From: Candidatus Parcubacteria bacterium
GTDB lineage: Bacteria > Patescibacteriota > Minisyncoccia > Phycocordibacterales > UBA918
Assembly (NCBI GenBank): GCA_046049585.1
Contig: JBJORD010000028.1
Location: 1-34,396, forward strand
Direction: 5' to 3'
DNA: 34,396 nt
Positions 8,338-33,229 of this stretch are shown here, in pieces (position 1 is the stretch's first letter; each line of letters starts with the position of its first letter). The notes beneath the pieces were generated by a model, which worked only from the letters and a program-made list of their open reading frames with translations, was not told the origin of the DNA and ran no database searches. Made by a program: the position numbers and the translations under genes.

Positions 8338-11067
8338 CTAACCTTCAGTCGTAGCTATAGTACTTGGTTCTTGACTGTTCTCAGTTACCACAGGCTCGAT
8401 ACCGACTGCAGCTTCTGCATTTTCTGTTGTGTTTAGTTCGGTTGTATTGGTATCACTAGGCTCACTTGTTTCATTAGATGTCTCTTCTGTTGCTGGCGAC
8501 GGTGCCTCAAATTGATTTTCAATAGCTTCTAAACGTTCTCGCAACAGGGCGTTTTCATTTTCCAAATCAGTCAATCTATCTTCGTGTCCGCTGATAGTCT
8601 GCCAAATTTCTTGTATGGCTTCTACTACCACAGCTACTAGGTTCTTGGTATTGAGCGACCAATAATCTCCCCCTTTTTGTACTACTTCTGGCACAACCAG
8701 ATCTACTTCTTGTGCCAAAAATCCTACCTCCGATTGGGTACCAAAACGTTCCGTATCCAACCATTCATACCGTACACCACGCAGGGCCAACACCATTTCA
8801 AGCGCACCACTAATTTCTTGCACATTTGTCTTGAGACGCTCATCTGAGGGATCACGAATGATGGCGCCATTGGCATCGACACTGAGGTTGGTAGCACCAC
8901 CAAGCAGATTCGTGGCTGTAATGGTGCCAGTGACTGTCAATTTGGTACCAGGAGTCGATGTTCCAATACCTACATTACCGTTACTGTGTATGGCAAAAAT
9001 ATCACCGTCAGTTATATTGGTAATACCAAAATAGCCCAAAGTTGAGGTGGCCAGGCTTTCGATACCAAACTCAGGAGTAGTATCAAGTAACCCCAAATTA
9101 CCAGCTGAAGTAAGACGTAATCGTTCTGCAAATACTCCTACAGAGACGGTCGAGAATCCAATAAATCCGTTGGGTGTAGTGTTATTGGTATCCTCTCTAG
9201 AGAGAGTAATCTGTGATGCTCGATCATCTGTGGTCGTAAATGAGGTGTTGTAATGTGCAATCCGTCCTGCTGTAGTAGTGATACTGTTACCGGCAGAACG
9301 CATTAGTATTTCTGTACTACGATTACTCGTACTATCAGATCCCACAAAACCATCTAATGTCAGTGAAGTGCCCGTAGTGCTCGATGCTGTGCTAAAAGCA
9401 ATAAAAGTCGCTCCACCGACACCGAGATGCTGACCATTAAATTGTAACTTGTTTGAAAAGAGTAGTTGATTAGCTGTACTTGTTGCAAATGGAATTGCAT
9501 TAGCGGTATAGACACTCGGGGTATCAGTTAGGCCTAGAAATGTTGATGCCCCACCACCACTAATTCCAAGCGAGGAAGTGGCCACCCAAGTTGGCAAACC
9601 ACTTACGACTTGCAATACTTGACCAGTAGTACCAATAGCTCGACTGGCCAATGTATCAGCTCCTGAAGCATAGAGCAGGTCGCCACTAGAATACGTAACT
9701 AATCCTGTTCCTCCCGAACTAACATCGAGTACCTCAGATAAGGTCAGTCTGGTTATTGTTGTAGTTGCTAAAGTAGAGGTACCAACAACACTAAGCCTGC
9801 CAGAATTTGTAGTACTAGCAAAAGTGGCTGTACCGGTAAAGGTTGGGCCATTTGAGAATACCGCCAATCCTCCACCTGCTGAACCAGTTTCGTCAGAGAG
9901 TAGCGCAGCTAGTTGCTCTGAAGTGGTGAATGCTGAAGACAAACCAAGTGACGAGGTGGCAATTTGTGACCACGAGTTACCAGCTCCACCAATGAGGAGT
10001 TGGTTTGTGGTGATGGTCGAGAGACCAGTCCCACCACGGGTAGCAGCGAGGGTACCAGTAGTATCGGCGATAGCGATATTGAGACTGGTGGTAGACACAC
10101 TAAGGGTGTTGCCAGTCCAGAAGAGATTGGTACCAGCGGTAATGCGAGCACTAGGGGCGTTGTAGTACGTGTTCCAGTTGGTAGATGAAGCAGTGAGGAT
10201 TCCTTCATAGCCAGCTGCGTAATCAATGGCCAAAGTACCAGTGGTTGTTATTGGTGAGCCAGAGATGGTAAAGCCTGTTGGTACAGTAGCTGCGATAGAT
10301 GACACAGTGCCACTACCGCCCCCACTGATTCCAAGCGATGAAGTCGCGACCCAGCGAGTAGAAGTACCAGTGCTCTGTAATATCATGCCAGATGCCCCAG
10401 CACTAGCTGTCGCATCTCGTAACGAGCCAGCTAAGGCGAGATCACCAGCAATAGTTAGTAACGCGATTGAGCTACTCGTACCAATACTCACTCTACCAGC
10501 TCCGTCGATATATATCCCCTCATTACCACCATCACCAGTTAACCAATTGGTGCCGAGCGCTAAATTGGAACCAATCGCACCAGAGAATATTGGCGCAACA
10601 AGTGTCGTACTAGAAACAGTAGCGGGATTTACTACAACACTCTCACGCACTTCGATAAAGTCGCTACTTGCATCATCCATAAAACTAAATAGTTGTTTTT
10701 CAAGCCGATTGATCCGCACATCACGAGACTGCTGTTGCTGCATCAATTGAACATAGCGCACCATCCCCACAAATCGACTATCGGTATATTGTTTAAAAGC
10801 ATTCCATTCATCATGACTAATACCAGTACTGTTAGATAGCTTCGTAAATTGATTGGATTGCACGAAAGGACTCACTACGGTAGTAGAAGCAACAAGTAAT
10901 TGACGCGTGATTGGTTCTGAGACTGGGACGGTATGAGTTACCACAGTATCTGCCACTACTGGGAAGGTGGTATATACCACCGAATCAGAGGACGACGAAA
11001 AAACTCCCATAACAGTGGCTAAGAGAAATGTAGATACGGTGGACAGAGAACTTACAAACCAGTCCAT
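8338..11067 (-). CDS. 909-aa N-terminally membrane-anchored tail-fibre-like surface protein with a C-terminal Peptidase_S74 intramolecular chaperone domain
   Basis: It has an N-terminal TM helix (VSTFLLATVMGVF) and a Q-rich coiled coil. A ~600-aa Gly/Ser/Thr-rich beta-repeat region follows, with the duplicated modules WVATSSLGISGGG and GGTGL...LL.G. GNVGIGTSTPGTKLTV is followed by DPSDERLKTNVQEISGALEMVLALRGVRYEW...GFLAQEV (S74 autoproteolysis signature, Ser codon 8845-8847), a coiled coil and an acidic tail. Confidence 0.8.
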   Translation of the reverse strand: MDWFVSSLSTVSTFLLATVMGVFSSSSDSVVYTTFPVVADTVVTHTVPVSEPITRQLLVASTTVVSPFVQSNQFTKLSNSTGISHDEWNAFKQYTDSRFVGMVRYVQLMQQQQSRDVRINRLEKQLFSFMDDASSDFIEVRESVVVNPATVSSTTLVAPIFSGAIGSNLALGTNWLTGDGGNEGIYIDGAGRVSIGTSSSIALLTIAGDLALAGSLRDATASAGASGMILQSTGTSTRWVATSSLGISGGGSGTVSSIAATVPTGFTISGSPITTTGTLAIDYAAGYEGILTASSTNWNTYYNAPSARITAGTNLFWTGNTLSVSTTSLNIAIADTTGTLAATRGGTGLSTITTNQLLIGGAGNSWSQIATSSLGLSSAFTTSEQLAALLSDETGSAGGGLAVFSNGPTFTGTATFASTTNSGRLSVVGTSTLATTTITRLTLSEVLDVSSGGTGLVTYSSGDLLYASGADTLASRAIGTTGQVLQVVSGLPTWVATSSLGISGGGASTFLGLTDTPSVYTANAIPFATSTANQLLFSNKLQFNGQHLGVGGATFIAFSTASSTTGTSLTLDGFVGSDSTSNRSTEILMRSAGNSITTTAGRIAHYNTSFTTTDDRASQITLSREDTNNTTPNGFIGFSTVSVGVFAERLRLTSAGNLGLLDTTPEFGIESLATSTLGYFGITNITDGDIFAIHSNGNVGIGTSTPGTKLTVTGTITATNLLGGATNLSVDANGAIIRDPSDERLKTNVQEISGALEMVLALRGVRYEWLDTERFGTQSEVGFLAQEVDLVVPEVVQKGGDYWSLNTKNLVAVVVEAIQEIWQTISGHEDRLTDLENENALLRERLEAIENQFEAPSPATEETSNETSEPSDTNTTELNTTENAEAAVGIEPVVTENSQEPSTIATTEG

Positions 11068-11739: not shown

Positions 11740-12057
11740 ATGCCTGGTCAATTTAGTCTCCGTGTGTATGAACTGGCGCTCAGTATTCCACCTGGTCGAG
11801 TGACAACGTATGGCACCATCGCCAAGGCTGCCGGAGGTGGCGCTATGGCGTCACGAAGTATCTCAAGCATACTCAGCAAAGCCCCTAATCAACGAGCTAT
11901 CCCCTGGCACCGAATTGTCTACGCTGGTGGCAAAGTCTGGCTCGATAACGAACACGAAATGACCCGTCGCAAAATGTACAAAAAGGAAGGTATTCTTATC
12001 GACAGCAAAGGTCGTATCAAAGACTTCGAGGAGATTTTTTACGACTTTAACGAATAA
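11740..12057 (+). CDS. Alkyltransferase-like protein (ATL; MGMT DNA-binding domain with Cys replaced by Trp)
   Basis: Contains VYELALSIPPGRVTTYGTIA...AIPWHRIVYAGGKV. The canonical PCHRV active site reads PWHRI, as in YbaZ/Atl1-type ATLs. Only the 105-aa DNA-binding domain is present. Confidence 0.78.
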   Translation: MPGQFSLRVYELALSIPPGRVTTYGTIAKAAGGGAMASRSISSILSKAPNQRAIPWHRIVYAGGKVWLDNEHEMTRRKMYKKEGILIDSKGRIKDFEEIFYDFNE

Positions 12058-12076
12058 TACTCATATAAAAAGCAAT

Positions 12077-12110
12077 AGAAAAACACTTTCATATATGAAA
12101 GTGTTTTTCT
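12077..12110. repeat. 34-bp perfect palindrome AGAAAAACACTTTCATA|TATGAAAGTGTTTTTCT (copy 1 of the ACTTTCATATATGAAAGT family), positioned like a bidirectional terminator
   Basis: Read directly from the sequence. It lies between the convergent ATL stop (12057) and the AlkC-like stop (12109-12111) and has A5/T5 flanks. Confidence 0.85.
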
Positions 12111-13236
12111 AACCCGAGCGAAGCGTAAAATCAGTTTTGCACACTACAACGCCGTTAATTTGTACGGCAACTGTATGCGTACCTGGATACAGTGTAAATG
12201 TAGTGGCATCGGCTTTGAGTCGGTGGTTTTTGATGAGCTCGAGTGACTCACCTCGCTTGAGCGAAACTATTTTCCACTTAAACACCTTAGGTGCAGTTGT
12301 ACCGTTTTTCTTTACAAAGTGGATGACGTAGTCGATGAGGAGATTTGTGTCATCAGTCGCAGTGATTGTGGTAGCAAATGACAACACGTCTCCAGCCTGT
12401 ATCTCTGAACTTGCGATAGTAAAACTATCTACCGTATATGTCGCACTGTTATAGCCAAGCAGGGTGAGTGTATCGCTATGTCCCTGTTTGATCAGAGTAC
12501 GTAATGCATGTTTCGTCATCCAAGCGAGCTCATGCGTATTTTGCTTCCCCAGCTTTTGCCACTGACGTAAAGTATCTATCACCACAGCCGGCTCTTTTTT
12601 CGCGATGTCATTGAGATGGTTTGCAATCGAGCGGGTCACATAACGAGTCGCATCTGCATGGAGGATATTGAGTAATGGGAGTGTATCAGCGCTCGAGAGT
12701 GGTACTCGCCCGCTCCAAGGCAATAAGGGCCTTGTCCCCTCACTCACTAGCCGCCTGACATGGTAGTTCTCATCACGAACCCACTGCTTCATAACGCGTA
12801 ATGTTTCTTTGGGAAACGCCCGCAGATAATACCGAATCGCGTCCTCCATAGAAAAACGCTGAGTTAGCTCACGGAGGGTTTCGAGTGATAGCGCGAGACG
12901 CTCCTTAGTACAACCATGCTTGGCCACATACTCACCAAAAGGCGCCAAAATAAATTCACCAAAATCATCATCAGTCTTTGTGGGATCTAGTGGTGGCGGC
13001 AAGGCGCGCACTATCACTGCTACCGCTTTTTTATAATCCGTTGGTAGATGTCGCGAAAGTACGTCTGCAATCCAGCGAATGCGGGCTTTGAGTTCGAGCG
13101 TGAGAAGTGTATGCATCACTTCCCGCTCAAATTCTTTAGCATCAAAGTTTTTGTCAGCTGCCGCGAGGAGTGACGCCAGGTACGCGACCCGCTCTTTATT
13201 AAACAAATGATCTTTGAGTGAAAAGCGTTCTGTCAC
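12109..13236 (-). CDS. alkC: DNA alkylation repair glycosylase, AlkC-like (HEAT-like repeats plus a C-terminal beta-rich Ig-like domain)
   Basis: Contains HVRRLVSEGTRPLLPWSGRV...YVTRSIANHLNDIAKKEPAVV, typical of the DNA-alkylation-repair HEAT-like repeat family. The ~100-aa beta-rich C-terminus is consistent with the long AlkC form. The start is GTG. Confidence 0.72.
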   Translation of the reverse strand: MTERFSLKDHLFNKERVAYLASLLAAADKNFDAKEFEREVMHTLLTLELKARIRWIADVLSRHLPTDYKKAVAVIVRALPPPLDPTKTDDDFGEFILAPFGEYVAKHGCTKERLALSLETLRELTQRFSMEDAIRYYLRAFPKETLRVMKQWVRDENYHVRRLVSEGTRPLLPWSGRVPLSSADTLPLLNILHADATRYVTRSIANHLNDIAKKEPAVVIDTLRQWQKLGKQNTHELAWMTKHALRTLIKQGHSDTLTLLGYNSATYTVDSFTIASSEIQAGDVLSFATTITATDDTNLLIDYVIHFVKKNGTTAPKVFKWKIVSLKRGESLELIKNHRLKADATTFTLYPGTHTVAVQINGVVVCKTDFTLRSG

Positions 13237-14998: not shown

Positions 14999-15022
14999 AT
15001 GACTCTTGTATACTAGATGGAT

Positions 15023-15103
15023 ATGAAAGTTATCTTTATTGCCATTGCCTTGTTTGTAGCTCTAGCGATTCTCAATGCCTACTTTGGCGGGACTCCATTT
15101 TAA
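15023..15103 (+). CDS. Possible 26-aa hydrophobic micropeptide (MKVIFIAIALFVALAILNAYFGGTPF)
   Basis: TATACT at 15009-15014 lies 8 nt before the ATG, the same geometry as many real genes here. It would form a single TM helix. I have no homology evidence. Confidence 0.25.
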   Translation: MKVIFIAIALFVALAILNAYFGGTPF

Positions 15104-15207
15104 TCACAAGGAATTTGGATTATATTTACTTTTGAGTAATTCATGGTATTATATTAGTTCTACACGTCAGGATCAACTTGGCGGTAGCAGCACTGGGAGG
15201 TGCACAA

Positions 15208-18817: not shown

Positions 18818-19555
18818 TTATTTTTGTAAAAGCTCCAAATACTTCTCTTCCACCGATTTCCCTCCCGCCATAAAGTCAGTCTTGGTGCCGTTCCAAATAA
18901 TCTGACCGTGATTAATGACTGCAATCATATTGCAAAGTTGTTGAATTTCTTCGAGATAATGTGAGGTAAGGATAATGGTAGTACCGGCATCATTAAGCTC
19001 TTTTAGGTATGCCCACAAATCGCGACGCTGCTCGACATCAACCCCAGCGGTTGGTTCGTCGAGAATGAGGAGTCCTGGCATATGCACCAGCGCTCGCCCG
19101 AGCATGGCACGACGCTTTAACCCACCAGATAACTTTTGAAATTTGACGTTCCGATGTTCTTCGAGATCAAAGCGGTCAATAAGTTCATTCACGCGACGTA
19201 TACGATCTTCGTGCGGGATACCATAGTACCCGCCCATATAGTCCATCAGTTCTGTCGGTGTCGAAAAAATATCAACATTAAATTCCTGCGGTGACAGACC
19301 GACCTTGGTACGTGCTAGTTTGTACTCAGTAACAACGTTTGTTCCGTCGATAGTTATCGTACCCGACGTTGGTTGCGCAATGCCGGTCAAACAATGAATA
19401 GTCGACGACTTGCCTGCCCCATTTGGACCAAGGAGACCAAAAAACGATCCTCGTGGTATCGACAATGTAATGCCGTCCACCGCCCGCTTTGCTTTCGCTC
19501 CGGTTCCATACACTTTTACTAAATCCGTAATCGTCACCATGGGTTTTTCTGTCAT
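18818..19555 (-). CDS. ABC transporter ATP-binding protein
   Basis: It has Walker A GPNGAGKSS, signature LSGGLKRR and Walker B LLILDEPTAGVD. The ATG at 19555 (MTEKPMVTITDL) is preferred. The ORF-track extension to 19771 crosses the divergent promoter region. Confidence 0.9.
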   Translation of the reverse strand: MTEKPMVTITDLVKVYGTGAKAKRAVDGITLSIPRGSFFGLLGPNGAGKSSTIHCLTGIAQPTSGTITIDGTNVVTEYKLARTKVGLSPQEFNVDIFSTPTELMDYMGGYYGIPHEDRIRRVNELIDRFDLEEHRNVKFQKLSGGLKRRAMLGRALVHMPGLLILDEPTAGVDVEQRRDLWAYLKELNDAGTTIILTSHYLEEIQQLCNMIAVINHGQIIWNGTKTDFMAGGKSVEEKYLELLQK

Positions 19556-19668
19556 GTGTACAGTATAGCAGAAATATGGTGAGCACAGAGAATCAGGGAC
19601 AAAGCCATCAGTAATTCTAAAACAATTCAAGATTAGAATATTTGAGGCTTTTCTGATATGGTTTTCTG

Positions 19669-20511
19669 GTGAAAAATCAAGAATACGATTGGCTACTGCG
19701 AGAAAAGTATCATGGTGAAAAAAGTGAGGCTTTTTTAGCTGATTGTGCCCGTATGGAGTCAGGCGTGCCATTAGCTTATATCATAGGGTCGATACCCTTT
19801 TTGGACTGCACTATTTATCTGGACTCCCATCCCCTCATTCCCCGCACCGAAACTGAGTGGTGGGTCGAGCAAGCTATTTCAGTCGTTCGTAATACAATAC
19901 AATCGACTCACTCGGTAGCAGTTACGAAGTCTCCGCAGCGAAAATACTCTGAGCGAGGACGGGCTTCGGAACTGCTACCGAGTGAGTTACATTACCAGGT
20001 CCTTGATCTCTGTGCAGGTAGTGGTGCGATAGGCGTGGCAGTAGCCAAAGCAATACCTGAGGCAGTAGTGACCTTTGCCGAAATTGACCCCAACCACCTG
20101 CCGACTATCCAAAAGAATCTTACAGAAAATACTTTCATATATGAAAGTATTAAATATCCAGTTATTGAGAGTGATGTATTCTCGAATGTAACAGGGACGT
20201 TTGATTTTATTCTCACAAACCCGCCATACATTGATGCCAAGGCTAATACTGTTGACGCATCTGTCATAGCACACGAGCCACACCTCGCTCTCTTTGGTGG
20301 TATTGGTGGCATGGAGATCATTGCTCGTATTATTACTGACGCCCGAGCGTACCTTACGCCGCAGATCGGACAACTCTGGATTGAGCATGAACCATTCCAA
20401 GCGGACGCCATCATGGAGATAGCACAATTACACGGATTTGAGTCGGTGACCTATACCGATCAATACGGCACAGTGCGCTATAGCATCCTTACGTTACCTG
20501 TGGCAAAATAA
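19669..20511 (+). CDS. prmC: Release-factor glutamine N5-methyltransferase (HemK/PrmC) carrying two in-frame palindromic segments
   Basis: Contains LIPRTETEWWVE, the SAM motif VLDLCAGSGAIG, the catalytic NPPY (ILTNPPYI) and HEPHLALFGG. The start is GTG. Confidence 0.85.
   Translation: MKNQEYDWLLREKYHGEKSEAFLADCARMESGVPLAYIIGSIPFLDCTIYLDSHPLIPRTETEWWVEQAISVVRNTIQSTHSVAVTKSPQRKYSERGRASELLPSELHYQVLDLCAGSGAIGVAVAKAIPEAVVTFAEIDPNHLPTIQKNLTENTFIYESIKYPVIESDVFSNVTGTFDFILTNPPYIDAKANTVDASVIAHEPHLALFGGIGGMEIIARIITDARAYLTPQIGQLWIEHEPFQADAIMEIAQLHGFESVTYTDQYGTVRYSILTLPVAK
19906..19987. repeat. 82-bp hairpin element inside the prmC reading frame (18-bp perfect arms plus a 5-bp inner stem)
   Basis: ACTCACTCGGTAGCAGTT (19906-19923) pairs with AACTGCTACCGAGTGAGT (19970-19987). 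CGAAG (19925-19929) pairs with CTTCG (19964-19968). Confidence 0.85.
20128..20151. repeat. 24-bp perfect palindrome AATACTTTCATA|TATGAAAGTATT (copy 2), in-frame in prmC
   Basis: Read directly from the sequence. It equals exactly 8 codons (N T F I Y E S I). Confidence 0.9.
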
Positions 20512-20516
20512 CTGGT

Positions 20517-20720
20517 ATGACATCTTTTGATTTAGCCCCTTTCCTGCAGATTGGTTTTTACTTGTTTGCCATTTTGTACGCTATTTTTAGCGCTGTGTTG
20601 TTTTATCACTGGCAGAACTTTTCGATGTCGCGCCTGGTCACCACACAAACATACATAGCCTACGGAGTTACGAGTGTACCGTTGTTATTAATCATGGGAG
20701 TGATTGCTTTTGCTGGATAA
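20517..20720 (+). CDS. Small two-TM membrane protein (67 aa)
   Basis: It has two hydrophobic helices. It starts 5 nt after prmC and abuts the bPH-domain gene (a YdbS/YdbT-like pairing). Confidence 0.5.
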   Translation: MTSFDLAPFLQIGFYLFAILYAIFSAVLFYHWQNFSMSRLVTTQTYIAYGVTSVPLLLIMGVIAFAG

Positions 20721-20724
20721 ATAT

Positions 20725-21288
20725 ATGCTACACGACGAAATCGAACTCGAAGTAGGTGAAACAGTGATGAAAACTGTCCGCAAACATTGGTTTGTTATTA
20801 CTATTGAAATGGTAGCGATTGTGATAATGGGGCTGGTACCCGTGATTGGTTGTATTATTCTCTTAAACCTACCCTACAACCAAGCCACAACGGTTTTGTT
20901 TGAAGAGAATTTGCCCGTCTTATTGTTTGGTCTAGCTGGATGGCTCCTTATGTCGGTCATGGCCACTGTTGTAGCCTGGACACACTACTACCTTGATCTC
21001 TGGATTATCACCGACCGTCGTATCATTGTGATCGAACAAGTGAGTTTCTTCAATCGCAAAGTGAGCAACTTTCGACTCGAACGTATGCAGGATATCAAAG
21101 TCACCATCAAAGGTATCATTCCGACGCTACTTAATTACGGTACTGTGCGTGCTCAGACAGCTAGTGCCGCTGAAAGTAACTTCACTTCACCAGGTCTCCC
21201 TGATCCACGCGGGTTACAGTCACTTATTCAGACAGCTATGGACGCCCGCCTCAAGGCACTTGGTGACGCTCCAATAATGGCAGACTAA
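20725..21288 (+). CDS. Membrane protein with a bacterial PH (bPH_2/YdbT-like) domain
   Basis: It has two TM helices followed by YLDLWIITDRRIIVIEQVSFFNRKVSNFRLERMQDIKV, typical of the bPH fold. The TTG at 20704 is an alternative start. Confidence 0.68.
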   Translation: MLHDEIELEVGETVMKTVRKHWFVITIEMVAIVIMGLVPVIGCIILLNLPYNQATTVLFEENLPVLLFGLAGWLLMSVMATVVAWTHYYLDLWIITDRRIIVIEQVSFFNRKVSNFRLERMQDIKVTIKGIIPTLLNYGTVRAQTASAAESNFTSPGLPDPRGLQSLIQTAMDARLKALGDAPIMAD

Positions 21289-21397
21289 AAAGAAAACAGA
21301 TCCCAAAAAAAACCTGTGATATTTTGTTGCAAGACTTGGCCGAGCAGCCCGGAGCACAACAAAATATGGTGGGTATTTTTGATTTTGGGTAATGTCA

Positions 21398-21426
21398 TTG
21401 CAAATACAACAATTTTCCCCTAGAAT
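21398..21426 (+). promoter_or_regulatory. hisS promoter TTGCAA-N17-TAGAAT
   Basis: TTGCAA at 21398-21403, a 17-nt spacer, and TAGAAT at 21421-21426. The ATG lies 7 nt downstream with no SD, which predicts a leaderless transcript. Confidence 0.6.
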
Positions 21427-21433
21427 CAAGGAT

Positions 21434-22696
21434 ATGGCAGACAAATTCTTGACCACCGACTCATACAAAGGAGTGCGGGATTTTTATCCAGAAGACATGG
21501 CGATACAGCGCTACATCTTTGATGTATGGAGCCATACAGCTGAAAGTTTTGGGTATGAACGGTATGATGCGTCGGTACTCGAACCGTCAGAGCTATACAA
21601 GAGTAAAGGGGCGGAAAACGAGGAGATGGTTAATGAGCAGACCTACACCTTTGTTGATCGTGGCGAGCGCGAAGTAACCCTTCGTCCCGAAATGACTCCA
21701 ACCGTTGCCCGCATGGTGGCTGGTCGACGACGTGAACTGTCTTTCCCGATTCGTTGGTACAGTATCCCAAACCTTTTCCGTTACGAACGTCCCCAGCGTG
21801 GCCGCTTGCGCGAACACTGGCAACTCAACTGCGACATGTTTGGCTCTGCTGACTACACCGCTGATGTTGAAGTAATCGCTCTAGCCAGTCAACTAATCCG
21901 TAACTTCGGGGCCGATGATTCCCTCTTTGAAATCCGTATCAATGATCGCGCCGAAATGCGAGGCAAATACAATACTCTAGGTGTCAGCGATATTAGAACC
22001 CAAGACAGCATCACCCGCCTCAACGACCGCTTCCACAAAATTTCTGCCGCCGAGTACAAAGCTGCCCTGACTGATATTGTTACGGACCAAGCTATCGTAG
22101 ACAATGTCTACACCCTTGTTTCTGGTGGCGATACTACTGACACCAACCAAGTGGTCGAAGGTTTGCGCGCGCTTGGTATCACAAATGTAAAAATCGATCG
22201 CTCGATTGCTCGCGGCTTTAATTACTACACAGGCACCATTTTTGAGATCTTTGATGTCTCTAGCGAAAACAACCGTTCAATGTTGGGTGGCGGACGCTAC
22301 GACAACCTCACGAGCATGTTTAGTCCTGAACCTATTTCTGGTATCGGATTTGGTATGGGTGATGTTACTATGCGCGACTTCCTCGAAACTCACGATCTAG
22401 TGACTGCAAGCATTACTGCCCCTACCGTTATGGTTGTTCCGATGACTACAACAGAGAATTTGGTAGCTCAACAAATCGCTGCGACTATTCGTTCCAAAGA
22501 GATATCTGTAGCAACGGACATTGGTACCCGAAAGATTGGCAAAAAAATCAGTGACGCAGCCGATCGATTAGTTGAGTACATTCTTGTTGTTGGTGAAGAC
22601 GAAGTAAAAAGCGGTACTTATACGCTCAAGAACCTGCTCGAAGAAAGTACAACGAGAGGCACTCTAGACGAATTTATCATTCAATTAACTGAATAG
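21434..22696 (+). CDS. hisS: Histidine--tRNA ligase
   Basis: Contains GVRDFYPEDM, LRPEMTPTVARM, YSIPNLFRYERPQRGRLREHWQ and GGGRYDNL (class II motifs 1-3 plus the HisRS signatures). Confidence 0.92.
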   Translation: MADKFLTTDSYKGVRDFYPEDMAIQRYIFDVWSHTAESFGYERYDASVLEPSELYKSKGAENEEMVNEQTYTFVDRGEREVTLRPEMTPTVARMVAGRRRELSFPIRWYSIPNLFRYERPQRGRLREHWQLNCDMFGSADYTADVEVIALASQLIRNFGADDSLFEIRINDRAEMRGKYNTLGVSDIRTQDSITRLNDRFHKISAAEYKAALTDIVTDQAIVDNVYTLVSGGDTTDTNQVVEGLRALGITNVKIDRSIARGFNYYTGTIFEIFDVSSENNRSMLGGGRYDNLTSMFSPEPISGIGFGMGDVTMRDFLETHDLVTASITAPTVMVVPMTTTENLVAQQIAATIRSKEISVATDIGTRKIGKKISDAADRLVEYILVVGEDEVKSGTYTLKNLLEESTTRGTLDEFIIQLTE

Positions 22697-22717
22697 TAAC
22701 ATATAATCACCAACATT

Positions 22718-22745
22718 GGACCGTCACTGATGGAAACGGTCCTTT
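22718..22745 (+). terminator. Hairpin terminator after hisS
   Basis: GGACCGT-11 nt-ACGGTCC followed by TTT. Confidence 0.45.
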
Positions 22746-22764
22746 GTGGTATACTGACGGCCAT

Positions 22765-23340
22765 ATGCGCTACATCGTGTTTGACTTAGAAACCCAGAAT
22801 ACCTTTGAAGAAGTGGGTTCAAGCGACCCAACGGCACTTGATATATCGGTCGCCACTTTTTATGACAGTGCTACCGATAAGTATACTACCCTAACTATTG
22901 ATGAACTTGACCAAGCCTGGCCGATTATCGAGCAAGCTGACGCCCTGGTTGGTTACAACAGTAACCACTTTGATATCCCTCTCCTCAACAAGTACTATCC
23001 CGGTGATCTTACCCATATCAAAAGCATCGATCTCCTTGAAAGTATTCGATCATCACTAGGTCGACGACTACGTCTTGATAGTGTGGCTGAGGCAACAGTA
23101 GGAGCCAAAAAATCTGCCCACGGTCTTCAGGCTGTCCGCTGGTGGAAAGAAGGCAAAATCAATGAGATCAAAAAATACTGCGAGCAAGACGTAAAGGTCA
23201 CCAAAAAGGTATTTGATTACGCTATGACATATGGTCACGTAAAATTCAAAGATGGTAGCCGCAAACGCGAAATCCCCCTCGATATCTCAACCTGGATGAT
23301 CAAAGAAGACGCCGCGATGACCCACTCTTTACTTTTTTAA
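22765..23340 (+). CDS. DEDDy-type 3'-5' exonuclease / RNase H-like fold protein
   Basis: It has Exo motifs IVFDLETQ, GYNSNHFDIPLL and YCEQDVKVT. TGgTATACT lies 9 nt upstream of the ATG at 22765. Confidence 0.68.
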   Translation: MRYIVFDLETQNTFEEVGSSDPTALDISVATFYDSATDKYTTLTIDELDQAWPIIEQADALVGYNSNHFDIPLLNKYYPGDLTHIKSIDLLESIRSSLGRRLRLDSVAEATVGAKKSAHGLQAVRWWKEGKINEIKKYCEQDVKVTKKVFDYAMTYGHVKFKDGSRKREIPLDISTWMIKEDAAMTHSLLF

Positions 23341-32418: not shown

Positions 32419-32619
32419 ATGATCAATCCCAAGTCAGCAATTCGTATCGCCCAGAAATGGGAATATAAAGAAATCAGGAGGGGTTCCGACCCAATACACT
32501 TTCTCAGACCAGCTGAGATGGAACAGCTCGGAATGGAAGGATGGGAAATGTGTGGTTGCCTTGCAAACAACCTGAGCGGTCCTTTCTACACAATCTATTA
32601 CTTCAAGCGCCCACTCTGA
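32419..32619 (+). CDS. DUF4177-like small protein
   Basis: Contains KWEYKEI...EMEQLGMEGWEMCGC...YYFKRP, resembling the DUF4177 pattern (WEYK ... GWEL ... lKRp). Confidence 0.55.
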   Translation: MINPKSAIRIAQKWEYKEIRRGSDPIHFLRPAEMEQLGMEGWEMCGCLANNLSGPFYTIYYFKRPL

Positions 32620-32644
32620 CCGCCCCGTACCCGCACCCATGCAG

Positions 32645-32681
32645 AACCCGCACCGGTCACACGGTGCGGGTTTTGCTTTTT
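32645..32681 (+). terminator. Rho-independent terminator
   Basis: AACCCGCACCG-GTCACA-CGGTGCGGGTT followed by TTGCTTTTT. Confidence 0.8.
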
Positions 32682-32706
32682 ATCTCCCATCTTCACCTCT
32701 TGTTCA

Positions 32707-32732
32707 AAATACTTTCATATATGATAGTATTT
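32707..32732. promoter_or_regulatory. 26-bp palindrome AAATACTTTCATA|TATGATAGTATTT (copy 3, 1 mismatch); candidate operator overlapping the promoter of the TrpR-like gene
   Basis: It ends 4 nt before the ATG at 32737 and contains the -10-like TAGTAT (32725-32730). Confidence 0.6.
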
Positions 32733-32736
32733 ATAC

Positions 32737-33156
32737 ATGAAGCGCAAACCATCGGATCTTTCACTTGAGGATCAGGCCTATACACGCAAGTTATTATTCG
32801 AAGCGGCTAAAGTAGCCAAGGACACGAAGCAGTTGGAAAAATTCCTTGATGGACTCTTAACTCCAAGCGAACAAATAATGCTTGGCAGACGTATATGGGT
32901 CAGTCGTTTGATTCTTGAAAACAAACGATATGATGAGATTAGTGAACGTCTACTGATTGGACATAACACCATTGCCAAAGTCGAGCTATGGCTACGTGGC
33001 CTCCTCCCCGATTACGGCAAACATATAGAGCGTGAAGTAAAACGTACAACGCATGAACGGCGTAAACAGATCGCGAAAGCTAACCCATTTGGTCTAACTG
33101 CTCTGAAAATGAAGTACCCACTTCACTTCCTTCTATTTCCCTGGCCAAAAAATTAA
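32737..33156 (+). CDS. TrpR-like / YerC-YecD family helix-turn-helix protein
   Basis: FLDGLLTPSEQIMLGRRIWVSRLILENKRYDEISERLLIGHNTIAKV resembles the Trp-repressor-fold family (f..dl.Tp.E...la.R......L..g.sy.eI......s.aTI.Rv). Confidence 0.68.
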   Translation: MKRKPSDLSLEDQAYTRKLLFEAAKVAKDTKQLEKFLDGLLTPSEQIMLGRRIWVSRLILENKRYDEISERLLIGHNTIAKVELWLRGLLPDYGKHIEREVKRTTHERRKQIAKANPFGLTALKMKYPLHFLLFPWPKN

Positions 33157-33161
33157 ATTTT

Positions 33162-33187
33162 AAATACTTTCATATATAAAAGTATTT
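33162..33187. repeat. 26-bp palindrome AAATACTTTCATA|TATAAAAGTATTT (copy 4, 1 mismatch)
   Basis: It starts 5 nt after the stop of the TrpR-like gene and lies immediately before an independent GC-containing terminator. Confidence 0.85.
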
Positions 33188-33192
33188 GTGAC

Positions 33193-33229
33193 ATAACAAA
33201 ACGGTCTCTTGGCGAGACCGTTTTGTTAT
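33193..33229. terminator. 16-bp perfect bidirectional terminator hairpin
   Basis: ATAACAAAACGGTCTC-TTGGC-GAGACCGTTTTGTTAT, between the convergent TrpR-like gene and rpoC. Confidence 0.8.

Follow-up and report, generated by a model that had tools for sequence, protein, structure and literature searches.

Repressors of the TrpR family, dyad operators and autoregulation are all well known. In Escherichia coli, the TrpR dimer binds a dyad operator that overlaps the −10 region of its own promoter, resulting in negative autoregulation. Other repressors combine a promoter operator with more distant sites: lac O3 and O2 are located at −82 and +412, and the lambda cI gene lies between the OR and OL operator clusters. 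Here, we describe a gene encoding a 139 amino acid (aa) TrpR/YerC-like helix–turn–helix (HTH) protein that is enclosed by two palindromes, one directly before its start codon and one directly after its stop codon. The gene is found in a 34,396 nt stretch of DNA (hereafter the window; contig JBJORD010000028.1, assembly GCA_046049585.1) from an ultra-small, uncultivated Candidatus Parcubacteria bacterium of the Candidate Phyla Radiation (CPR). We interpret the protein as a probable dimeric TrpR-fold repressor, the ATATAT-centred palindromes as its predicted operators and the gene as a leaderless gene under putative negative autoregulation, and we assign this reading a probability of about 0.75.

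The locus resembles several described systems in part. The protein has the fold of E. coli TrpR (template modelling (TM) score 0.68), and the LTPxE...LGxR motif and the HTH threonine are common to both. However, ACT and AGT are separated by 8 bp in the trp operator, with its GNACT half-sites, and by 12 bp here, and trpR has a single operator with no downstream copy and lacks the leaderless transcript predicted at our locus. The likeness to lac and lambda consists of a primary promoter operator, an auxiliary site ~100 bp upstream and another ~450 bp downstream, although oligomerization beyond the dimer is only hypothesized here. Whereas a site of the lac O2 type lies within the downstream gene, the downstream site of our locus is just outside the coding sequence. 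A further site, in the prmC gene of the window, is like the intragenic roadblock operators (PurR at purB; CodY/CcpA) in lying inside the coding region of an operon's first gene, far beyond the start codon, and its role is predicted. We know of no described counterpart to an intragenic operator kept by codon choice across PrmC proteins of ~50% identity.

Among the groups of solved structure, HisR (3g1c, 3frw and 3kor) is the nearest, and it belongs to the same Pfam family. HisR (B. subtilis YerC) has a predicted 20 bp palindromic operator with the consensus cacTTTAnnnnnnTAAAgtg, a motif that was confirmed in DNA-binding assays of R. gnavus HisR and is predicted upstream of HisR's own gene in about half of the genomes studied (PMC9413887). 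The window sites have a matching architecture: positions 12084–12103 read CACTTTCATATATGAAAGTG, which has the 20 bp length, the ACT-N12-AGT arms and the TTT/AAA steps of the operator type cacTTTA-N6-TAAAgtg, and the other copies read TACTTTC...GAAAGTA. The two systems differ in other respects. HisR proteins are shorter than 100 aa, whereas the window protein is extended by a further helix and a conserved tail; the centre of the operator is an invariant ATATAT here and is unconserved in HisR; and the sites described here stand on both flanks of the gene. HisR, with histidine as its corepressor, controls genes for the biosynthesis or uptake of histidine, whereas the only histidine link at our locus is the site in the candidate prmC–hisS operon.

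Palindromes enclose the gene in most of its family

The 18 bp palindrome core ACTTTCATATATGAAAGT has exactly four matches in the window when up to three mismatches are allowed, at 12085, 20131, 32711 and 33166. All four are within one mismatch of the core, and the count expected from 100 dinucleotide-preserving shuffles of the window was 0.00. On recheck, the sequences and coordinates given in a preliminary description of this DNA were all right. Its statement that each copy flanking the gene departs from a perfect palindrome at one position was borne out, the mismatch being GATAGT instead of GAAAGT in one arm of the upstream copy, the centre of which lies 17.5 nt 5′ of the ATG, and ATATATAAAA in the downstream copy, 455 bp away. 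The two further copies that it listed elsewhere in the window are also present, and both are perfect palindromes (Table 1).

Orthologous loci lacking flanking palindromes had been named in that description as the finding that would speak against an operator model, and the opposite was found. The first three orthologous loci (83, 76 and 68% protein identity) carried ATATAT-centred palindromes directly before the ATG and after the stop codon, even where the neighbouring genes differed. A metagenome scan then added 80 loci, down to 40% identity, nearly all with the same layout. We counted proximal copies, defined as lying within 40 nt upstream or 45 nt downstream, in the 66 distinct loci with enough flanking sequence (97–40% identity). 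Both copies were present in 47 loci (71%), the upstream copy alone in nine, the downstream copy alone in four and neither in six. The downstream copy was located 9–45 nt past the stop codon in 51 of the 66, and the distance from the upstream centre to the ATG was 15–21 nt in most loci, with a mode of 17.5 nt (29 loci) and a value of 18.5 nt in ten more. Many relatives carry auxiliary copies at about −105 to −128 and +60 to +160. Within 300 bp of the gene, ATATAT-centred 18 bp palindromes occurred at 4.14 per kb, compared with 0.057 per kb over the other 283 kb of the same loci, a 73-fold difference in density.

The gene neighbourhood differs between clades. Within clades the contexts are stable, and the position of the gene between dnaG and rpoC is kept from 100% down to 45% identity. 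Compared with a 97%-identical locus (L137, 2870–3000), window positions 32676–32736 lack 104 bp that lie between copies at −121 and −17, and the single hybrid upstream copy of the window fits a deletion by recombination between two repeats. A rearrangement breakpoint at the palindrome, considered for the same pair of loci, was rejected as an aligner artefact, the real difference being the 104 bp indel between two copies.

The upstream copy overlaps a predicted leaderless promoter

Almost no gene in the window has a Shine–Dalgarno sequence, and TATAAT-like hexamers (TATAAT, TACAAT, TATACT and TAGTAT) are found 6–11 nt before many starts. Most mRNAs of this genome therefore appear to be leaderless or nearly so. 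A promoter matrix built from the 66 orthologous upstream regions, anchored on the ATG, showed T at −12 (58%), A at −11 (68%), T at −7 (76%), T at −1 (68%; Y−1 as a pattern) and A at +1 (97%). The T−12 A−11 ... T−7 pattern is probably the signature of a −10 element, with the A of the start codon as the first nucleotide of the transcript.

In the window, the −10-like hexamer TAGTAT arises solely from the right-arm mismatch of the upstream palindrome, GATAGT in place of the consensus GAAAGT, and the same right-arm mismatch is seen again in relatives (ACTTCTATATATAGTAGT). The terminator-like hairpin upstream of the gene closes the preceding transcription unit, thereby leaving the TrpR-like gene a promoter region of only ~60 nt. 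The operator spans about −26 to −9, overlapping both the −10 element and the spacer, and in a direct comparison of the operator with the core promoter of its own gene, as deduced from conservation, the operator centre at −17.5 fell on the T−12 A−11 ... T−7 pattern. As the upstream copy overlaps the conserved −10 element of a predicted leaderless promoter, negative autoregulation by promoter occlusion is the best-supported mechanism on these grounds. The preliminary description had proposed that a protein bound at the upstream copy would occlude the promoter of a probably leaderless gene, a proposal to which the conserved pattern, the A(+1) of the ATG and the scarcity of Shine–Dalgarno sequences lend support. 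We also considered whether the symmetry of the upstream copies served a divergent leaderless open reading frame (ORF), and rejected this as 57 of 64 loci had no divergent ORF.

A TrpR-fold protein with a conserved C-terminal extension

The 139 aa protein matched the Pfam Trp_repressor model (PF01371) over residues 18–99 with 39.6 bits (gathering cutoff 27). It fell far below the curated cutoffs of the NCBIfam models for YerC/YecD (TIGR02531; 21.3 bits against 42.2) and for the trp operon repressor (TIGR01321; 20.8 bits against 67.25). An AlphaFold2 monomer model built with 89 homologues reached a predicted local distance difference test score of 91, and comprises the TrpR core (18–99) with HTH helices at 65–72 and 76–86, an extra long helix at 93–115 and a tail. 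Residues 104–139 (33046–33153) are confidently modelled with little secondary structure. In a Foldseek search of the PDB, the top 40 matches were all TrpR or TrpR-like, with TM scores of ~0.65–0.69 on the target; E. coli TrpR (~0.68) and the HisR-like structures were the best. By sequence profile, the HisR-like structures were closest (3frw, 3e-9; 3g1c, 3e-8; 3kor, 6e-7), ahead of TrpR (~2e-4).

Nearly all of the 291 homologues are from CPR bacteria and are annotated as Candidatus Paceibacteria, Parcubacteria or Kaiserbacteria. Their length is conserved at about 138–146 aa. The tail, NPFGLTALKxKYPLHFLLFPWPK, is near-invariant and among the best-conserved parts of the protein in family alignments, and neither TrpR nor HisR has an equivalent. 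We conclude that the protein has the TrpR fold and represents a CPR-specific subfamily, with HisR/YerC as its closest characterized relatives. A dimeric protein would fit the dyad symmetry of the sites. The additional helix and the tail at the C terminus form a candidate surface for oligomerization or interaction, and could mediate higher-order assembly. The LTPxE...LGxR motif, conserved here as in TrpR, suggests that binding is likely to be modulated by a small ligand, probably an amino acid like those of TrpR and HisR.

Palindrome arms vary with the predicted DNA-reading residues

The arms of the palindromes vary by lineage (ACTTTC, ACTTCT, ACTATC, TCTATC, CTTATC, TTTACC, AGTTCC and ACTTTG...CAAAGT, among others), while the copies inside one locus agree with each other. 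We measured mutual information between protein alignment columns and the half-site across 75 distinct orthologues. The top column was residue 80, and residues 77, 76, 66 and 65 were in the top nine. Asn77 was paired with TC at half-site positions 5-4 in 36/36 cases, Asp77 with TG in 4/4, Ala77 with CC in 7/8 and Gly77 with CT in 6/10; Tyr80 accompanied T-rich outer arms in 9/9.

In a profile alignment, residues 66, 76, 77, 78, 80 and 81 stand opposite what we take to be R69, I79, A80, T81, T83 and R84 of TrpR, a correspondence that we treat as a lead. These six are the residues named as DNA-contacting in TrpR (PMC9413887). The blind co-variation ranking appears to agree well with the known contact residues, despite a contribution from shared ancestry. 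Together with the conservation of the bracket and the HisR-type architecture, the co-variation strongly supports the earlier suggestion of a dyad operator role for the palindromes, recognized by the encoded HTH protein, and we regard them as the predicted operators of the 139 aa protein.

Dispersed sites and the candidate prmC–hisS operon

In a scan for exact 20-mer matches using one genome per species, AT-rich non-CPR genomes contained singletons only, whereas CPR genomes contained several separate perfect 20-mer stretches each (four in GCA_046293175.1, four in isolate SAT3048 and three in a Campbellbacteria metagenome-assembled genome). About 40 of 46 dispersed sites were intergenic, in genomes that are mostly coding. 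Positions are conserved between genomes: a site equivalent to the one between the 375 aa gene and an ogt-like gene of the window lies between the orthologues of these two genes in locus L114, and a site is found between a DUF3467 gene and ychF in two genomes and beside a DUF3467 homologue in a third. The dispersed copies had been taken to point to a small regulon or a repeat family tied to the regulator, and the low number of sites, their mostly intergenic location and their positional conservation fit that description.

The convergent-gene copy at 12077–12110 takes up almost the whole of the 51 bp gap between the ogt-like gene (11740–12057, +) and the 375 aa gene (12109–13236, −). It consists of the operator core with A/T-tract flanks, which gives it the anatomy of a bidirectional terminator. 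Positions 12076–12111 were scored as terminator-like by scan, with a hairpin of −19 to −20 kcal/mol on both strands.

The prmC (hemK) copy is read in frame as ACT TTC ATA TAT GAA AGT, encoding TFIYES within the peptide NTFIYESI. The corresponding codons are ACT ATC ATA TAT GAT AGT in L079 and L217, ACT ACT ATA TAT AGT AGT in L218 and ACT ATC ATA TAC GAT AGT in L219, so that the site occupies the same codon positions in five genomes. The arms change symmetrically, replacing two amino acids (F/I and E/D), and the chance of a palindrome arising from synonymous codons for TIIYDS is ~1/864. These two observations indicate that what is conserved at this site is the palindrome in the DNA rather than the peptide. 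It is kept by codon choice across genomes at about 50% PrmC identity, and its peptide footprint is found in about one third of 67 CPR PrmC homologues, in an otherwise variable loop.

The prmC gene heads a block of five genes that ends beyond hisS (Table 1), the order and tight spacing of which are also found in L217, L218 and L219. This block is a candidate regulated operon in which the first gene carries the intragenic copy. In L218, a further perfect site lies directly past the hisS stop codon. The hisS link is suggestive given the HisR relatives; as other sites adjoin proS, trpS and lysS, we do not claim histidine control. A role for histidyl-tRNA synthetase as a common, histidine-sensing neighbour was rejected, as the aminoacyl-tRNA synthetase beside the gene in L003, L005 and L091 is prolyl-tRNA synthetase and no single-amino-acid logic emerges. 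No his biosynthesis operon was seen, and no trp or aro genes, the targets of TrpR, were found in the window or adjoining the sites.

Two further roles for the dispersed sites were examined and set aside. Paired sites might bracket tRNA or small RNA genes, but no tRNA or Rfam family was found between pairs, and the L105 sites are merely near an rRNA/tRNA cluster. The palindrome cluster was also considered as a replication origin or terminus, which was rejected as the L003 locus showed no GC-skew switch and its genes are co-oriented through the cluster.

Next to prmC (19669–20511, +), an ABC-ATPase ORF of 317 aa (18818–19771, −) overlaps the prmC start by ~100 nt. Orthologues of the ATPase are 245–254 aa long; its true start is probably farther downstream, and the two genes simply divergent.

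Table 1. Positions in the window of the TrpR-like gene, its flanking palindromes and associated features
Feature	Position	Strand	Size	Details
Upstream palindrome (predicted proximal operator)	32707–32732		26 bp	AAATACTTTCATATATGATAGTATTT; ends 4 nt before the ATG at 32737
−10-like hexamer TAGTAT	32725–32730	+		In right arm of upstream palindrome, 6 nt before the ATG
TrpR/YerC-like HTH gene	32737–33156	+	139 aa	
Downstream palindrome (predicted distal operator)	33162–33187		26 bp	AAATACTTTCATATATAAAAGTATTT; begins 5 nt past the stop codon TAA (33154–33156)
Intrinsic-terminator-like hairpin	33193–33229		16 pairs, 6 GC	Between TrpR-like gene and convergent rpoC 3′ end
Terminator-like hairpin of upstream 66 aa ORF	32641–32676	+	15 pairs, 10 GC	T-run
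Palindrome between convergent genes	12077–12110		34 bp	AGAAAAACACTTTCATATATGAAAGTGTTTTTCT; perfect
Intragenic palindrome in prmC	20128–20151		24 bp	Perfect
prmC, small ORF, bPH-domain gene, hisS, RNaseH-like exonuclease gene	19669–23340	+		Tightly packed co-directional block

Downstream and auxiliary copies

The downstream copy was rejected as the intrinsic terminator of the gene. As RNA, the window copy forms a weak hairpin (−6.1 kcal/mol, z −1.8) with no T-run, and neither of the two copies flanking the gene makes a good hairpin (−6 to −9 kcal/mol, z about −2). Family-wide, a T-run follows 40% of downstream copies and 39% of upstream copies; the hairpins of downstream copies are somewhat more stable than those of upstream ones. 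A terminator function common to the family is thus not supported. In the window, the weak downstream copy is followed by a separate terminator-like hairpin of 16 pairs, and joint folding of the two gave −29.6 kcal/mol (z −7.7). The preliminary description had held the downstream copy unnecessary for termination for the same reason, and this stands. The separate hairpin is context, outside the repeat family. No outward-facing promoters were evident at the downstream copy in the window.

The 455 bp between the two flanking copies is within the ~50–500 bp operator spacing of looping repressors. Looping or cooperative binding is plausible, if less likely than not, as a role for the downstream and auxiliary copies, and the blocking of read-in transcription is another plausible role.

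Proposed mechanism and alternative explanations

In the mechanism that we favour, a dimer bound to the upstream copy would exclude RNA polymerase, resulting in negative autoregulation of the leaderless gene. The downstream and auxiliary copies would raise occupancy via cooperative binding or DNA looping, and may also block transcription entering from outside. The C-terminal helix and tail would serve as the candidate oligomerization surface, and an amino-acid-like ligand would tune binding. The same protein would bind a few tens of further sites per genome, and a dimer bound inside prmC, at the head of the candidate prmC–hisS operon, would act as a roadblock.

A number of observations weigh against this interpretation. 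In many cases a copy is the tip of a much longer perfect palindrome whose outer arms are particular to that site, a feature that a duplex-binding dimer does not need. Alignment columns 104, 139 and 10 also have high mutual information, despite lying outside the HTH, and shared phylogeny inflates the signal. Single genomes contain both of the centre variants CATATATG and CTATATAG, at different loci, so that the matching of arm to protein is not strict. Examples are L217 6529–6546 compared with L001 9974–10446, and L218 6415 and 8875 compared with L149, in which prmC/hisS sites are set against regulator-flanking sites. This coexistence reflects either tolerant recognition at half-site positions 4–6 or incomplete homogenization between copies, and recognition of these positions may be looser than the co-variation suggests. 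Many dispersed copies are at 3′ ends or between convergent genes, most are not at promoters, and none of the dispersed sites was found at the −17 position of another gene, whereas a classical promoter-occluding regulon predicts otherwise. Finally, helical phasing of the auxiliary operators was sought, and their distances (55–195 bp) showed no clear pattern.

The location of the dispersed sites, at 3′ ends and in convergent gaps and almost never at promoter positions, would be expected if the protein bound the palindromes mainly as a boundary or architectural factor (a roadblock or insulator in protein-assisted termination, or a DNA organizer), rather than as the ligand-controlled repressor of a regulon, and autoregulation only set its level. 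The regulator's own gene, insulated on both sides in 71% of loci, the conserved intragenic prmC site, the bidirectional-terminator anatomy of the 12077–12110 copy and the fact that the best-conserved part of the protein is its non-TrpR C-terminal tail are all in keeping with such a role. However, T-runs are no more frequent at downstream than at upstream copies, the downstream copy of the window is followed by its own strong terminator, and the ligand-pocket-like motif common to TrpR is conserved. Moreover, at ~1 site per 18 kb the palindromes are far too sparse to mark most transcription-unit ends. We consider this explanation unlikely. The same holds, a little more strongly, for an elaborated form of it in which the palindromes would be two-state elements (duplex or hairpin/cruciform) and the TrpR-like protein a dedicated boundary factor that insulates transcription units. 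The regulator's own gene would then be the prototype insulated unit, and protein-assisted roadblock termination would occur at gene ends, in convergent gaps and inside operons of these tiny genomes, which are poor in Shine–Dalgarno sequences and apparently rich in leaderless genes. Alternatively, the palindromes could be structure-forming elements (RNA 3′ hairpins, terminators, stabilizers or cruciforms; REP-like) that the protein does not recognize, their association with the gene being historical. Their frequent extended palindromy with site-specific outer arms, hairpin energies that reach −19 to −25 kcal/mol and intergenic, 3′-end location are what such elements would show, and an invariant (AT)3 centre favours extrusion. 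Set against this are the co-variation of the arms with the DNA-reading residues of the protein, an architecture equal to that of HisR operators, the 73-fold enrichment at the gene and a fixed −17.5 geometry that puts the upstream copy outside the leaderless transcript; in addition, the gene-flanking copies of the window are poor hairpins and T-runs are not enriched. Taken together, these points make a purely structural origin very unlikely.

A gene bracketed by a dispersed palindrome also resembles the RAYT/REP 'REPtrons', and the preliminary description had raised the possibility of a self-contained cassette. The gene and its flanking palindromes would then form a mobile unit (REPtron- or integron-cassette-like), with the solo palindromes as its targets or footprints, and would be moved by recombination between palindromes. 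As in REPtrons, the palindrome is also found in intergenic regions and at 3′ ends, and has lineage-specific variants. The gene neighbourhoods differ between clades, and the 104 bp segment of L137 lies exactly between two copies, so recombination between palindromes does occur. However, REPtrons have hundreds of palindrome copies and encode a HUH Y1 transposase, while here there are tens of copies, 3–4 perfect stretches per CPR genome and ~0.06 sites per kb away from the gene, and the only domain of the 139 aa protein is Trp_repressor, an HTH repressor fold, with no catalytic domain (HUH, tyrosine/serine recombinase or DDE). Searches of the protein against PHROG and PADLOC gave no match, and a motif scan of viral contigs returned isolated singletons in unrelated contigs, on which grounds we also rejected a phage or defence origin. 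Unlike in REPtrons, the sites are positionally conserved, the solo copies even between distant genomes and inside prmC. The location of the gene appears vertically inherited, as its position between dnaG and rpoC down to 45% identity also argues. The cassette is thus disfavoured, and we regard it as extremely improbable.

Extended palindromes and other features

Extension of the palindromes beyond the core reaches +19 bp per side (58 bp in total) and affects both dispersed and gene-proximal copies. Extensions of at least 6 bp are common, though the chance of each is ~2/10,000, and some upstream copies carry the symmetry through the ATG. Perfect palindromes of 38–58 bp include L074 2105–2162, L122 3380–3425 and L085 5825–5868, some with GC-rich arms and without a T-run. 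Such long palindromes could reflect selection for a hairpin or cruciform, or template-switch 'palindrome growth' where it is tolerated. At L001 5865–5914, the 3′ end of rpoD and a uvrD-like gene are separated by a 50 bp perfect palindrome with the centre GATATATC and TTTT after it. The arms of this palindrome (AGTGCG...) do not resemble the operator arms of that genome, and it may be a long terminator of the ordinary kind or a site for some other factor.

Between dnaG and the regulator gene, the window contains a 66 aa ORF (32419–32619, +) with its own strong terminator. This ORF had only a sub-threshold match to the 'Sp36 family', and L002 has a 57 aa ORF in the equivalent place. Elsewhere, a 26 aa hydrophobic ORF (15024–15104, +; MKVIFIAIALFVALAILNAYFGGTPF) has a TATACT box 8 nt upstream and no Shine–Dalgarno sequence, and is a possible leaderless small membrane peptide. 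An apparent orphan half-site at 15021–15030 is merely the ATGAAAGT start of this ORF. A 909 aa protein (8338–11067, −) contains a Peptidase_S74 domain (endosialidase/tail-spike intramolecular chaperone), unusual in a small CPR genome, and could be a surface fibre or phage-derived.

Novelty and significance

A literature search for a TrpR-like regulator or a palindrome family of this kind in CPR bacteria found nothing. The HisR/YerC operators of the same architecture are, like TrpR-family repression itself, already known. Five aspects of the locus appear to be new with respect to the searchable literature: the CPR-specific subfamily with its conserved C-terminal extension, the clade-wide enclosure of a regulator gene by its own predicted operator, the invariant (AT)3 operator centre, the intragenic predicted operator kept by codon choice, and a legible specificity code that relates residues 76, 77 and 80 to half-site positions.

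The CPR (Patescibacteria) make up a large share of bacterial diversity, yet nearly all are uncultivated and almost no transcription factors or regulons have been characterized in them. The finding does not constitute a new principle, but offers a well-supported and tractable entry to gene regulation in this major uncultivated lineage. It provides a widespread family of single-domain regulators and, with it, the DNA site that these probably bind, a promoter predicted to be leaderless and a few conserved targets. Two features are uncommon: the enclosure of a regulator gene by its own predicted operator throughout a clade, and the preservation of a predicted operator inside the essential prmC gene by codon choice. 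If the dispersed 3′-end sites are functional, they would suggest roadblock-type control of transcription-unit boundaries in minimal genomes. Should the protein instead prove to act mainly as a boundary factor, the locus would exemplify a sequence-specific termination or insulation system derived from a metabolite-repressor fold.

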